Of a stretch of 7,267 bases of DNA, positions 1 to 7,267 are shown in pieces. The DNA comes from Candidatus Odinarchaeia archaeon (GTDB lineage Archaea; Asgardarchaeota; Odinarchaeia; Odinarchaeales; Odinarchaeaceae). A program made the translations under genes and the position numbers. The notes under the pieces are model-generated. The model saw only the letters and a program-made list of their open reading frames with translations, was not told where the DNA came from and did not search any database. Each line of letters starts with the position of its first letter. Positions within the stretch are counted from its first letter, which is position 1. The DNA is taken from assembly GCA_029856525.1 (NCBI GenBank), contig JAHQXC010000065.1, positions 1-7,267 of the forward strand. Direction: 5' to 3'.

Positions 1-177
1 AGTGTTGGAATATGCGCGAGTGTTAGGTGAGTGTAGTTGAAATATTCAAAACAAATATTCCCATACCATTCTATTTAAACATTTACAGCTAATTCAAACA
101 GCTGAAAAGCAAATAGTAAAAACAGTTTTCGATAAATTAATTAATTGCACCATTAACTTATATTCTTGGTGGGCTTG

Positions 178-1080
178 ATGTCTTACCGTGAATTATATTG
201 TACAAAGAACACTGGTTTCCTTAACTCGAACACCCCGTATAGGGACGCTGAATTTATAGTAGTCGGTGTACCTTTAGATATGACTTCTTCTTATATTTCA
301 GGGACACGATTCGGACCGGATTCTATTAGAAGAGCTTCAGTGAACATTGAAACATTCGACTATGAGAAGGGAGTCGATGTCAAGAAAATTAAATTAACTG
401 ATATAGGTGACGTCGACGTCGACTACTCTAGCATAGATTTAACACTTGATAAGATAACTAAAGTGTTATCTGAGATTCTCAACGACGGTAAGAGGCCGGT
501 TATATTAGGCGGAGAGCATACGATAACACTAGGGGTGTGTAGAGCTGTTAAACCACAGGCGATGATATGCTTCGACGCTCACTTAGATTTAAGAGAAGAG
601 TATGCGGGTGCGAGAATTTCACACGCCTCCTTCATGAAAAGGATTATTGAAGAGAGATTAGTTGAAAAAATACTTTTCATAGGAACTAGAGCCGTATGCA
701 AAGAGGAGCTTAAATTTATTAAAAATAATGGTGTACACCGTTTTATAAGCTCCAAGGATGTTTATAAAAATGAATTACCTTCCCTGATTAAATTTATTGA
801 AGATGAGCTTTCCAGCTACCGGTATGTTTATATTTCAATTGACATGGATGTTTTAGAACCGGCATTCTCACCATGGGTGGGGAATCCTGAACCCGGCGGG
901 TTAACTTATAATTTTGTAAGCGATATAATTGAGAAATTAGATAAATTAAACTTTATAGGCGTTGATGTAACTGAAGTGACACCTGTATATAACATTGATA
1001 TAACCTCTATATATGCGGCTAAGCTTCTATTTAAAGCAATTATCTCGATAAACGAATCTAAAACACGTATACGAAAATAA
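178..1080 (+). CDS. speB: Agmatinase / ureohydrolase (arginase family), about 300 aa
   Basis: Arginase-family motifs GVPLD..SSY..GTRFGP..IR, GGEHTIT, FDAHLDLR, SHAS and SIDMDVLEPAFSPWVGNPEPGGL. The ORF track opens at TTG 166, but GGTGG (168-172) is a well-spaced RBS for ATG 178, so 178 is preferred. It lies next to arginine decarboxylase. Confidence 0.92.
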   Translation: MSYRELYCTKNTGFLNSNTPYRDAEFIVVGVPLDMTSSYISGTRFGPDSIRRASVNIETFDYEKGVDVKKIKLTDIGDVDVDYSSIDLTLDKITKVLSEILNDGKRPVILGGEHTITLGVCRAVKPQAMICFDAHLDLREEYAGARISHASFMKRIIEERLVEKILFIGTRAVCKEELKFIKNNGVHRFISSKDVYKNELPSLIKFIEDELSSYRYVYISIDMDVLEPAFSPWVGNPEPGGLTYNFVSDIIEKLDKLNFIGVDVTEVTPVYNIDITSIYAAKLLFKAIISINESKTRIRK

Positions 1081-1528
1081 CAGCTACGCAGCCGTATTTA
1101 GCTGATTGAACTTCTAGAGAAGCTGTCTCGAATTTAAAACACTCCACAGTCATCCCCCGGCTAGCCGCCATTTCCTGTAAGCGTTCCCTGAGACTCTTCT
1201 CCAACACTTGGTTGTCTATAAAATTCTGCTGTGCTGTTACCACTAATCCCATTTTTTCACGGCCTCTGCTGGCTAAACCCCATATAAGTCCAGCTGATAT
1301 TCGATCCCCTCTAATCCCTGTGTTCTTGCTAATAACTGTGTAAACTATTTCTCCTGTTTCAAATCGTTTAGGGGGGGTTTCAACCGCTTCACCTGATATT
1401 ATAGAGGAGACAGGTACTATATTCACATTATCTAAGCCTGCTTGAATTAAAACTTTATCAAACGCGTTCACAGGGGATACATCACTTAACCCTGCACCTT
1501 TAACTATGAAGAAATTTTTAGCGTTCAT
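1058..1528 (-). CDS. pdaD: Pyruvoyl-dependent arginine decarboxylase proenzyme (PvlArgDC), 156 aa
   Basis: Signature NAFD..L..AG..NVNIVPVSSI with the Ser41-Ser42 self-cleavage site (nt 1408-1403), the guanidinium-binding Asp (AFD) and the processing Asn (NVN). It also has ISAG and a C-terminal YGCV. The catalytic Glu position is Thr (see findings). Confidence 0.88.
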   Translation of the reverse strand: MNAKNFFIVKGAGLSDVSPVNAFDKVLIQAGLDNVNIVPVSSIISGEAVETPPKRFETGEIVYTVISKNTGIRGDRISAGLIWGLASRGREKMGLVVTAQQNFIDNQVLEKSLRERLQEMAASRGMTVECFKFETASLEVQSAKYGCVAVIFVYVF

Positions 1529-2001: not shown

Positions 2002-2019
2002 AAAGAGGAGTTGAATGAT

Positions 2020-2319
2020 TTGGAGTTCTGCCCTAAGTGTGAAGCGCTGTTATTCCCTAAAAAAGAAGGGGATAAGGTAATATTATTCTGTAAAAAATGC
2101 GGCTTCGAAACTGAAGCTAAAGAAGGTGTAGACTATAAGTTAGTGGTTAACATACCGCACACTGAGAAAGATAAAATCGATGTTATTAAATTATCTGTTA
2201 AGAAAAGAGTTTCAGAAGAAGAGAGGGAGGCTTTCGAAGATTATTATCGCGGGTTAGAGGAAGCTGGTGAAGAATTTGAAGAAGAAGGAGAGGAGAGCGA
2301 GGGAGAAGATTATGAATGA
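2020..2319 (+). CDS. TFS/RpoM (A12.2/Rpb9/C11 family) paralogue with the N-terminal zinc ribbon and linker only, followed by an acidic tail; about 99 aa
   Basis: EFCPKC..LLFP and FCKKCGFE zinc ribbon plus the TFS-like linker YKL...IPH..KDKI.VI. There is no second CxxC pair and no QTRSADEP hairpin. The ORF track starts at TTG 2011, but RBS GAGGAG abuts that codon, whereas TTG 2020 has 9-nt spacing and gives the canonical MEFCPKC start. Confidence 0.82.
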   Translation: MEFCPKCEALLFPKKEGDKVILFCKKCGFETEAKEGVDYKLVVNIPHTEKDKIDVIKLSVKKRVSEEEREAFEDYYRGLEEAGEEFEEEGEESEGEDYE

Positions 2320-2342
2320 AAAATTTAAGGCGGGGAGCCTAT

Positions 2343-2585
2343 ATGGCTGAGAGAATAAAGGCTTTTATAAGCGTTACCACAGAGCACATGGAGCCTGAGG
2401 AAATCCGCGATACACTTGTTAAAGATTGTAAACCCGAGGAAATCTATTTTGTAACAGGCGAATACGATTATATTTTAAAGATTAGTGTAGATGATATGAA
2501 TGAGTTGAAAGAGATGGTTTCAAAGCTTAGAAAGCATTCATGGATTAAAAAAACTAACACTTCGATAATTCTTAAACAACTCTAG
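2343..2585 (+). CDS. Stand-alone Lrp/AsnC ligand-binding (RAM) domain protein without HTH, about 80 aa
   Basis: KAFISV, EIYFVTGEYDYILKI and KKTNTSIIL match the RAM domain (the VTGEYD motif). ATG 2343 has RBS GGGGAG at 2332-2337. The alternative ATG 2316 overlaps the upstream TGA (ATGA). Neither start leaves room for an HTH. Confidence 0.85.
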   Translation: MAERIKAFISVTTEHMEPEEIRDTLVKDCKPEEIYFVTGEYDYILKISVDDMNELKEMVSKLRKHSWIKKTNTSIILKQL

Positions 2586-5302: not shown

Positions 5303-7267
5303 TTAGATAAGGTCTTTATCCCTGATTTCTTTAGAAGAAGCCATCCACATAGGTCCGAGAACTCTGTGAACTAGTTGAACATAGGCGGGTTGATGTGATA
5401 CTAGTGCGACTATTTGTTGAGGCTGACCCGTGTTAGGTGCGAGTAAAACCTCTTCATTGTCTCTGGCACACCCGAAAAAGTCTCTTTCAGGTCTATCCCA
5501 TATTCTAATGTTCCCCTTCGATAATAGTTTTTTAATCGCTTCCATATCTGATTCAAGATTTAAACCGGTAACTAAATGTATTCTAATTCTAGGTTTTGTT
5601 TGAAGTAATACGTTGACTACAGTTTCATCTAATTCCGGCAGGACTATTGTAACCGTGGATTTTGTCCGATAAATCATATCGCATATATGCGTTAGCACAG
5701 CTACTCTAGAGATGAGATGCCATGTACCCTCCGCTTTTTCAAGAGTTGTATGGGAGGCTTCCTCCCATGCTGATTTTAATACAGCGGTGGATTGTAGAAC
5801 GCTGCGTGCAATATCGTTAAGAGGTTTCTCACATTTAGATTGAATACCGTCGATTAAATTTTCAAGGAGAGTGGAAGAGGAGTCAAGTTGATCTATACTC
5901 TGCTTCTCAACACTTTTAATATGGTTTACAGTTGATTCGCTTAATTTACTAGAATAATACGCGTATTTCTCTTTAAGATCGGTTTTAAGTTTTCCGAATA
6001 GGTTTTCTAATTCAACCTTTATATTAGAAGGTGTTACTGTAAAACTCTCACCAAGCTTGTTTTTAACTTCTCCAACACTGTTTTTAATGTTTAATATACC
6101 GGTTTCGAAAACATTTAAAGTCTCATGGCATGTGTGATCTGTTGCTTTCAAGTTTTCATCATGGCTGGCAGCTATCTTAGAATCGGTTTCAGCTGATATA
6201 TTTTCTATTAGGTCTACTGCGTCAGCCTCTATTTTTTCAATTATACTAATAGACTCTTTTAAACTTCTATCAAGCTCTGAGACTAACCGGTCTTTATTAT
6301 TTGAGATCAGTGTACGCGTATTTTCAGCTTTCAACTCGATTTCTTCGTTTAATTTTCGTGAACTCGTAGATAAATCAGCTTCTATTTTATCTAAGTTTTC
6401 GCTGATACCGGTTATATGCGACTCTATTTCACCCTCCAGAGTGGTTGACTGATTCCCTAGTAACGTTGAGACTGAATTCTTTATATTTGAAATATTCGAG
6501 CTGATTAATCTAGTTTTTTCACTGGTTTTTGATTCGAGTTCTCCTGTTAACTTAGATGAATCGGATTCAATTTTTCTAGTTACCGAGCTTATCTTCTCAT
6601 TTAATTGTTTATGTAAACCGTTGAGAAGAGTCTCCGCAGTATTATTCTTATCTTCAACAAGGCTCTCTATATTTGTTGAAGCCTCTTTTAAGCTTGTTTT
6701 AGCTTTATCTATTATTTTATCAAGTTTTACAGTACCGGATTCTTTAAACTCGCTTAAAGCCCGGCTGCTTTCACTCTGATATGATTGAAGGCTTTCCTCA
6801 ACATTCTCTTTAAATGAAATTATCCTCGAATTTACGGTATCTGCTACTGATTCAACCATTTTTAGAATTCGATTCTTAGAATTATTCACGTACTCGATTA
6901 AACTGTTATGAGTTGAAGCTAATAATTCTTTTAACTCTGATTTTAAGATTTGAAACTGCTCTATTATGTTTTTAAAAATTGATTCAATCTTTTCATCGGA
7001 GTCTTTTAAAGCTGCTTGTTGGAGGCTTATTAGATTCGCCAGCTCATCTTCAAGAGCGGCTCTGTTTTCAGGTATAGTTTTCTGTAGAATGCTTTGAATA
7101 TGTTCAGCTTCCTCTTTAACTCTCGCTTGGATGCCGCTAGCTGTCTCACCTAGCTTTCTGATGAGGGCTTCATATATCTGGCTGATGATTGCTGTTAACT
7201 CTGTTTGCTCAGTTATCAAATCCGTTTCTATACTAGCTATTTTATCATTAACCTCTTTTTTTAATCC
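5303..7267 (-). CDS. 5'-partial (at least 654 aa) long hendecad coiled-coil protein with a C-terminal TrmB-like / PLD-fold domain
   Basis: The frame stays open past TTG 7219 to the window edge (GLKKEVNDKIASIETD, no stop), so the real start is outside the window. About 500 helical residues contain only 3 Pro. The C-terminal ~140 aa (GTWHLISR..ICDMIYRTKSTVTIVLP, ARDNEEVLLAP, ALVSHQPAYV..W) resemble the TrmB effector domain by recalled similarity, not by a search. Confidence 0.8.
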   Translation of the reverse strand, partial: GLKKEVNDKIASIETDLITEQTELTAIISQIYEALIRKLGETASGIQARVKEEAEHIQSILQKTIPENRAALEDELANLISLQQAALKDSDEKIESIFKNIIEQFQILKSELKELLASTHNSLIEYVNNSKNRILKMVESVADTVNSRIISFKENVEESLQSYQSESSRALSEFKESGTVKLDKIIDKAKTSLKEASTNIESLVEDKNNTAETLLNGLHKQLNEKISSVTRKIESDSSKLTGELESKTSEKTRLISSNISNIKNSVSTLLGNQSTTLEGEIESHITGISENLDKIEADLSTSSRKLNEEIELKAENTRTLISNNKDRLVSELDRSLKESISIIEKIEADAVDLIENISAETDSKIAASHDENLKATDHTCHETLNVFETGILNIKNSVGEVKNKLGESFTVTPSNIKVELENLFGKLKTDLKEKYAYYSSKLSESTVNHIKSVEKQSIDQLDSSSTLLENLIDGIQSKCEKPLNDIARSVLQSTAVLKSAWEEASHTTLEKAEGTWHLISRVAVLTHICDMIYRTKSTVTIVLPELDETVVNVLLQTKPRIRIHLVTGLNLESDMEAIKKLLSKGNIRIWDRPERDFFGCARDNEEVLLAPNTGQPQQIVALVSHQPAYVQLVHRVLGPMWMASSKEIRDKDLI
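5777..7264 (-). repeat. Protein-level 11-residue (hendecad) tandem repeat of about 46 units, with traces of a 66-residue super-repeat
   Basis: Taking every 11th residue from -14 to 481 (ORF-track numbering), 38 of 46 are L/I/V/F with no register break. The +4 and +7 positions are also enriched in hydrophobic residues. No DNA-level tandem repeat is visible. Confidence 0.85.

Follow-up and report, generated by a model that had tools for sequence, protein, structure and literature searches.

We analysed a 7,267-nucleotide stretch of DNA from Candidatus Odinarchaeia archaeon (assembly GCA_029856525.1, contig JAHQXC010000065.1; hereafter the window) and found that it carries, on its minus strand, most of a gene for a TrmB-family protein whose two end domains are set apart by a coiled coil of ~790 residues. 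The comparisons described below strongly support a domain order of the TrmBL2 type: a winged helix-turn-helix (HTH), an amphipathic helix, and a phospholipase D (PLD)-like C-terminal domain. The end domains themselves belong to the known TrmB/TrmBL2 family; what is new is that a coil of this length splits them. As to function, we tentatively propose, as a real possibility that stops short of being probable, that the protein is an ATP-independent rod of calibrated length whose winged helix tethers DNA. The gene is divided between the window and a second contig of the same genome (C121), and its parts are as follows.

Window 5303..7267, minus strand: open reading frame (ORF) of the TrmB-family long-coil protein, comprising the C-terminal 654 codons and stop of a 1028-codon gene.
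Window 5747..7267, minus strand: predicted hendecad (11/3) coiled-coil segment, fragment residues 1-507 (~375-881 of the full protein), assigned by periodicity.
Window 5306..5746, minus strand: predicted globular PLD-like C-terminal domain, fragment residues ~508-654, assigned by fold and profile comparison.
Contig C121, locus L003:6031-7134, plus strand: 5' part of the long-coil gene, 368 codons, assigned by a PF01978 match and synteny.

The minus-strand ORF has its stop codon at 5303-5305 and contains neither a further stop nor a start up to position 7267, where the window ends; its 5' end is thus open, as a first-pass annotation of this DNA had reported. The window is a complete contig (C117, 7267 bp) of a 1.32-Mb assembly in 127 contigs that is 93% complete, and because the ORF reaches the contig end without a start, the gene must have been cut by an assembly break. 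The N-terminus was sought with a word-indexed search in which the C-terminal 175 residues served as the query; this returned proteins of 605-1028 amino acids, two of which contained PF01978 (TrmB HTH). Both tblastn with the long homologues and a PF01978 scan of the window's own genome pointed to the 3' end of C121, where an ORF with an ATG start encodes a TrmB winged helix and then a hendecad coil, and runs off the contig end after 368 codons. We found that C121 and the reverse complement of C117 map collinearly and back to back on two same-genus genomes (tblastx; 21-nucleotide offset), one of which is a closed chromosome of 1,418,269 bp. About 16 nucleotides (~6 codons) are unassembled at the junction, which gives a total of 368 + 6 + 654 = 1028 codons, and each of the three same-genus genomes has an orthologue of 1028 amino acids. 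In addition, a 21-kb Logan contig from the probable source run spans the window end and extends ~13.9 kb past it; no RNA run was listed among the sequencing runs that contain this DNA. From these results, we conclude that the two ORFs represent a single gene with a predicted product of 1028 residues, of which the window holds the back two-thirds.

The recovered N-terminus permitted a comparison with what the first-pass annotation had proposed, namely that the sequence upstream of position 7267 might encode a TrmB winged HTH and that a membrane anchor or ATPase there would point to a different role. We found the former and not the latter: PF01978 matched L003:6031-7134 with 51.5 and 49.1 bits in two scans (cut-off 25.6), and the N-terminal sequence contained no transmembrane segment and no signal peptide. 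Among PDB sequences, TrmBL2 matched this domain best, in a gapless alignment of residues 4-98 (E 1.4e-3), with TrmB next. The winged helix also recurs among homologues, as PF01978 was detected in 24 of 47 that were scanned (E<1e-3) and a family-specific hidden Markov model (HMM) found it in 96 of 156. Thus, the architectural half of the annotation, a TrmB protein with a hugely expanded dimerisation helix, agrees with the order that we observe: winged HTH, coil of ~790 residues, TrmBL2-like C-terminal domain.

The helix begins at residue 80, directly after the wing motif PRYQANPPY, and is amphipathic; the window segment corresponds to the C-terminal two-thirds of the coil. Fourier analysis of hydrophobicity over fragment residues 1-500 gave a peak at a period of 3.66 with a power of 12.7, compared with a 99th percentile of 1.64 for shuffled sequences and a power of 0.18 at 3.50. 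The peak fell at 3.67-3.70 in every 100-residue block, the one that abuts the window edge among them, and autocorrelation of the fragment showed maxima at lags of 11, 22, 33, 44 and 55. The claim that the hendecad register continues to the window edge therefore holds far beyond chance, and the helix that had been put at 500 residues or more in fact spans ~790. In the orthologue from the closed genome (P0157), the 11/3 phase stayed constant to within ~0.4 residue from residue 81 to residue 860, in a single register. Its a and h positions were ~68% hydrophobic and its d and e positions 46-53%, while the remaining positions were polar or charged; this a/d/e/h pattern matches the core of a canonical hendecad coiled coil. 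The P0157 coil comprises 71 consecutive hendecads without a stutter (up to ~140 in homologues) and has 2 prolines in 788 residues. To our knowledge, it is among the longest uninterrupted hendecad coiled coils. Across 16 listed homologue coils, of 575-1531 residues, the period was 3.645-3.685 and the heptad signal was absent; most had 0-5 prolines, and three of the 16 had 11-17.

We found no sign that the coil arose by internal duplication, in that there was no significant self-alignment and there were no notable tandem repeats in the DNA. Coil self-identity at lags that are multiples of 11 was 11%, versus 8% at other lags, which, in the absence of internal repeats, indicates that only the hydrophobic pattern is conserved. 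Within the genus, four proteins are all exactly 1028 amino acids long and align with zero gaps, even though their identity is only 42-58% in the coil as compared with 71-87% in the end domains. This gapless length despite a divergent coil suggests that length and register are themselves under selection. With a rise of 0.15 nm per residue, an unbroken helix of this size would give a rod of ~115 nm.

An AlphaFold2 (AF2) model of the full-length monomer bears on whether the helix is in fact continuous. Its confidence was low (mean predicted local distance difference test score, pLDDT, 58.7; predicted template modelling score, pTM, 0.29), and only its secondary structure was used, not its tertiary arrangement. 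Residues 80-880 were helical with five short breaks, so that a folded-back bundle is conceivable. In that case, the protein could be an ordinary TrmB-type regulator whose long helix folds into a compact bundle that keeps the HTH pair close, with the coil as a sensor or stability module; members of the family with short linkers (73-155 residues), which grade into canonical TrmB sizes, are in keeping with this idea. However, the hendecad phase passes unbroken through all five predicted breaks, no conserved glycine or proline lies at them, and one homologue (P0003, 1027 amino acids) has no proline at all in 761 coil residues. The exact, indel-free length would not be required of a bundle with loops, and the recognition helix, as shown below, is not conserved in the way that an operator-specific regulator would need. 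We therefore consider a compact regulator quite improbable.

At the other end of the coil, the C-terminal domain carries a conserved signature, W..R.K....P...GN.R...RD.EEV.(L/I)AP. The claim that the protein ends in a TrmB C-terminus fared unevenly: it stood by fold and by profile-profile comparison, but not as a direct Pfam match, as fragment residues 490-654 matched no Pfam family even at E up to 10. Similarly, PF11495 (Regulator_TrmB) had no match at E<1e-3 in 47 homologues; one long-coil member of 1244 amino acids passes the cut-off of that family (25.7 bits versus 22.2). An AF2 model of the domain built with 62 homologues reached a pLDDT of 93.8, and in a Foldseek comparison with the PDB, ranks 1-9 were all TrmBL2 (5bpd, 5bpi, 5box, 5bqt) or TrmB (2f5t, 3qph), with E values of 3e-9 to 3e-7 and, for 2f5t, a root-mean-square deviation of 2.8 over 139 columns. 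Members of the PLD superfamily followed (Nuc, NucT, F13, FAM83, Zucchini and PLD3). When a profile of the C-domain family was compared with PDB sequences, 3qph ranked first (E 0.0067), followed by 5box and 2f5t, at the correct region; hhalign to five canonical short paralogues with PF01978 and PF11495, one of them from this genome, gave 92.9% probability and an E value of 3.7e-7 over 139 columns. The motifs GN..R and D..EV are common to TrmB and this family.

The HKD catalytic motif HxK(x)4D is not present in the C-terminal domain, as no His-x-Lys occurs among the residues that are fully or almost fully conserved (W, R, P, N, D, E, E) and the equivalent of the catalytic site reads RD.EEV, which is acidic. 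The protein stops 4 residues past the PLD-like domain, and thus ends before any second, sugar-binding subdomain (~70 extra residues with G320/E326) could follow; in this respect it is TrmBL2-like and not TrmB-like. Together, these results identify the domain, at the level of models and profiles, as a predicted catalytically dead PLD-like domain of the type that follows the helix in TrmB and TrmBL2. A structure prediction of two copies of the domain, with the helix left out, scored 0.15 against a mark of 0.42, a result that speaks neither for nor against self-association.

With both the coil and the C-terminal domain in view, we considered whether the protein might coat lipids or membranes, as an amphipathic 11-mer protein of the apolipoprotein, perilipin or LEA type whose PLD-like domain binds a lipid head group. 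The only significant Pfam match on the coil is indeed Apolipoprotein A1/A4/E (PF01442, 59 bits), a family that shares an amphipathic helical periodicity of 11 and 22 residues; residues 622-804 of P0003 exceed the cut-off (113 bits versus 90), there are weak matches to ApoLp-III, and the PLD fold is shared with lipid enzymes. Yet in the protein described here the PF01442 match stays below the 90-bit cut-off (59.4 for the window fragment and 44.6 for the N-terminal fragment). The hydrophobic stripe is narrow, an a/d/e/h core and not a broad lipid-binding face, and the proline punctuation of apolipoproteins is missing from this archaeal, cytoplasmic protein. Furthermore, the C-terminal domain has no HKD, and the acidic RD.EEV at the equivalent site is unsuited to phosphate. 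Other periodic look-alikes from Pfam and NCBIfam, SpiroCoCo and the ZorA tail, were also below threshold. The likeness to apolipoproteins is most simply explained as mimicry through a shared 11-residue periodicity, not as homology, and we regard a lipid-coating function as very improbable.

Whether the winged helix binds DNA is central to the proposed role. The characterised members of the TrmB/TrmBL2 family all bind DNA (PMC4158304), and TrmBL2, a chromatin protein without sequence specificity, makes stiff filaments and stalls SMC (PMC4877046; PMC11840125). Conserved features of the long-coil family include the wing motif R-Y-x-A-x-P-P-Y and basic residues at positions 61, 65 and 73. Several observations, besides the helix breaks noted above, weigh against a DNA-tethering rod. 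Tyr50 and Asp51 of Pyrococcus furiosus TrmB/TrmBL2 have been singled out, and Tyr50 of TrmB is reported to be essential for DNA recognition (PMC4158304); in the gapless alignment to TrmBL2, Gln52 and Lys53 stand opposite these two residues, and column 52 across the family is E, Q, K or R. The genome's own canonical TrmB paralogues retain the V-Y motif. Even among orthologues of the genus, the winged-helix domain varies most in its recognition helix and is nearly invariant elsewhere. Family-wide, the recognition helix is frequently acidic (median net charge -1); the whole winged-helix domain has a net charge of -2. Finally, in the neighbourhoods that we compared, no DNA-related or other partner gene is conserved beside the long-coil gene beyond the level of the order. 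Since the recognition tyrosine is lost and the helix is variable and often acidic, sequence-specific reading of DNA seems unlikely; non-specific binding through wing and backbone contacts is plausible.

These same features underlie the main rival to DNA tethering, a structural or cytoskeletal spacer in which the winged helix has been re-used for protein binding or capping and the rod links protein or membrane structures, much as do long coiled-coil tethers and the coiled-coil-rich cytoskeletal proteins of bacteria. A recognition helix that lacks the TrmB tyrosine and varies, often toward acidic residues, while the wing and the remaining domain are nearly invariant, is in line with such a spacer. 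So, too, are the many paralogues per genome, whose rods differ greatly in length yet are fixed within lineages (~86-230 nm), and a paralogue in the same genome (contig C21; see below) that bears an extra N-terminal domain before the HTH-coil-C-domain unit. The fold matches of the C-terminal domain include FAM83; PLD-fold pseudo-enzymes such as FAM83 serve as scaffolds. On the other hand, both end domains are nearest to TrmBL2 and TrmB, whose characterised members bind DNA (PMC4158304), the basic wing residues are conserved, no cytoskeletal or membrane gene is linked in the neighbourhoods examined, and the N-terminus has neither a transmembrane segment nor a signal peptide. We judge the spacer to be on the unlikely side, but it deserves serious attention.

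Our favored reading, a DNA-tethering rod, can be put as a mechanism. An amphipathic dimerisation helix after the wing is a feature of the TrmB family (PMC4877046; PMC4158304), and the post-wing helix of the long-coil protein appears to fit this description, with a length outside the known range: the helix would have grown from ~30 to ~790 residues of uninterrupted hendecad coil. Two or more such helices would pair in a homo-oligomer, most simply a dimer, to form a nearly straight, stiff rod of ~115 nm, and DNA would be bound by the winged helix, probably non-specifically as in TrmBL2. If the coil is antiparallel, one head would lie at each end, beside the C-terminal domain of the partner, and the rod would keep two DNA segments a set distance apart; if it is parallel, the fixed spacing would be between DNA and whatever the paired C-terminal domains bind. 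In the short helix of TrmB, F81 pairs with I91' and F84 with L88' (PMC4158304), a pattern that makes the pairing antiparallel. Pairing of this kind, if kept, would yield a two-ended bridge instead of the arrangement envisaged by the first-pass annotation, in which the heads share one end of the rod and an oligomerising tip forms the other. We also compared per-hendecad core hydrophobicity with its own reverse in 13 homologues, as a test of mirror symmetry; the correlations were mostly -0.1 to -0.4 and none was positive, which fits a gradient along the rod and is compatible with either orientation.

Among known systems, TrmBL2 (5BOX, 5BPD, 5BPI, 5BQT) is the best PDB match, by sequence for the N-terminal domain and by fold for the C-terminal domain. 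The two proteins share an extended winged HTH, an amphipathic dimerisation helix and a PLD-like C-terminal domain, and both lack a sugar-binding subdomain and an HKD motif. They differ in the length of the helix (~30 residues in TrmBL2 versus ~790), in the replacement of Tyr50/Asp51 by Gln/Lys in the long-coil protein, and in the C-terminal domain, for which identity is only 11-15%. TrmBL2 itself has 264 amino acids and coats DNA as tetramers (PMC4877046). The sugar-responsive relatives TrmB and TrmBL1 (3QPH, 2F5T) have in common with the long-coil protein the PF01978 winged helix, the coiled-coil helix after the wing and the first effector-binding subdomain, whereas the long-coil protein has no second, sugar-binding subdomain, no VY motif, and a coil that is ~25-fold longer. 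A precedent for a possible mode of action is Sso10a of Sulfolobus, in which a winged-helix head sits on a coiled-coil dimer and which acts architecturally, by bending, bridging and stiffening DNA, and not in an operator-specific manner (PMC4941522). In contrast to the long-coil protein, Sso10a has a mass of ~10 kDa, its coil measures a few nm, and it lies outside the TrmB family and has no C-terminal domain.

The proposed rod can also be compared with SMC, Rad50 and MukB, whose rods of ~50 nm or more join DNA-binding ends in chromosome organisation. Those proteins have ABC ATPase heads, an intramolecular antiparallel heptad coil and a hinge. In contrast, the long-coil protein is built on hendecads, Pfam and NCBIfam scans of both gene fragments revealed no ATPase or hinge family, there is no conserved break in mid-coil, and any action would be ATP-independent. 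The 11/3 periodicity and the a/d/e/h core are those of the tetrabrachion stalk and of the E-G peripheral stalk of A/V-type ATPases, although the sequences and end domains of these proteins are unrelated to ours and the peripheral stalk has only ~100 residues. Coils of this 11/3 a/d/e/h type form nearly straight, slightly right-handed, stiff rods.

The long-coil protein belongs to a large family. An exhaustive profile search with the C-terminal domain returned 575 cluster representatives at E≤1e-3. Of the 41 Asgard genomes that were searched, 37 contained the domain; apart from the window's own family, 19 families were sampled, and 18 of them had it, in line with the first-pass suggestion of similar proteins in Asgard genomes. 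Genomes usually carried several copies, up to five, with open frames of up to 2092 amino acids. Homologues occur in Odinarchaeota and, more distantly, in Promethearchaeota, Hodarchaeota and Atabeyarchaeia; the nearest ESM-Atlas clusters are labelled 'hypothetical protein' and are 100% archaeal, most often from Promethearchaeota. We found no description of a long-coil TrmB family in the published literature. In the 96 members with a winged helix among 156 sequences, the distance from the PP of the wing to the first tryptophan of the C-terminal domain ranged from 73 to 1554 residues, a series that would lead from near-canonical TrmB sizes to rods of ~230 nm. Linker length modulo 11 was uneven across the family, but a large subfamily with a fixed 267-residue linker dominates the sample, and we do not take the unevenness as a sign of quantisation in multiples of 11.

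Members of that subfamily (e.g., P0088, P0092, P0105 and P0108) share a linker of exactly 267 residues and continue for 150-320 residues past the C-terminal domain, which indicates that the TrmB-coil-PLD unit also serves as an internal module elsewhere. The paralogue on contig C21 of the same genome (L004:4435-5820, minus strand; ~450-460 amino acids) begins with an extra domain of ~120 residues that has no Pfam match, followed by PF01978 (37 bits), a 125-residue linker and a C-terminal domain of the long-coil family (22-24% identity); it is kept in the three same-genus genomes, where the open frames have 462-477 amino acids. Separately, a single in-frame TAG was seen in each of four Asgard homologue frames (G005:C79, G006:C39, G013:C55 and G024:C39), where it may mark a gene boundary, a pseudogene or recoding.

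The neighbours of the long-coil gene are hisA, hisF, hisI, a purP-like gene and genes for GlcD/GlcF-like oxidoreductases. An upstream ORF of 316 amino acids (L003:4981-5931, plus strand) ends 99 nucleotides before the gene start; it is Cys-rich (CVECESDRIRC...P.CG) and has no Pfam match. This ORF, the only conserved neighbour, lies next to the long-coil gene in Odinarchaeial genomes (69% identity) and in a relative at the level of the order (35%), whereas a more distant Asgard family lacks this arrangement; the ORF could be a lineage-specific partner or mere conserved synteny. In Atabeyarchaeia, an M20 peptidase gene lies downstream. The long-coil gene appears to stand alone. Also on C121, between the hisF-like and hisI-like genes, is an ORF of 106 amino acids (L003:4016-4336, plus strand) that matches the Cas12f1-like TNB domain PF07282 (33 bits, cut-off 26.3); it may be a remnant of TnpB/Cas12f or a small zinc-ribbon protein. 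The window itself contains these other genes, assigned by family matches where bit scores are given.

Window 166-1080, plus strand: agmatinase (Arginase family, 253 bits).
Window 1058-1528, minus strand: pyruvoyl-dependent arginine decarboxylase (90 bits).
Window 2011-2585, plus strand: RPB9/TFS-type zinc-ribbon protein (102 amino acids) and a stand-alone Lrp/AsnC ligand-binding domain protein (89 amino acids).

The agmatinase and arginine decarboxylase genes are convergent, with 3' ends that overlap by 23 nucleotides, and form a compact pair for polyamine synthesis. The RPB9/TFS-type protein has a very acidic tail (EEAGEEFEEEGEESEGEDYE), and its gene overlaps by 4 nucleotides that of the 89-residue Lrp/AsnC protein, which has no HTH.

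Known TrmB proteins are compact, sugar-sensing regulators, and TrmBL2 is a DNA-stiffening, SMC-stalling chromatin protein in Thermococcales. The long-coil family is annotated only as 'hypothetical protein'; the automated label 'apolipoprotein' (e.g., for P0003) would be an artefact of periodicity. A bolder extension of our proposal, which we hold to be rather improbable, is that Asgard archaea possess multi-paralogue, TrmB-derived 'molecular rulers', stiff hendecad rods of lineage-fixed lengths of ~90-230 nm that carry a winged helix for chromatin at one end or at both and set distances without ATP. If so, these rulers would space chromosome segments from one another, or the nucleoid from some other structure, and would be a prokaryotic counterpart of the long coiled-coil tethers of eukaryotes, such as the transverse filaments of the synaptonemal complex and spacers of the lamina or golgin type. 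Asgard cells described so far measure roughly 0.5 µm, and rods of up to ~230 nm would thus span a sizeable fraction of the cell. The proteins should be readily accessible to experiment, given the small size of the domains and a rod that electron microscopy should be able to show. If the rods do not bind DNA, they would represent a new class of archaeal structural protein built on the scaffold of a transcription factor; if they do, they would reveal a new way, independent of ATP, in which the closest prokaryotic relatives of eukaryotes organise their chromosomes over long range.

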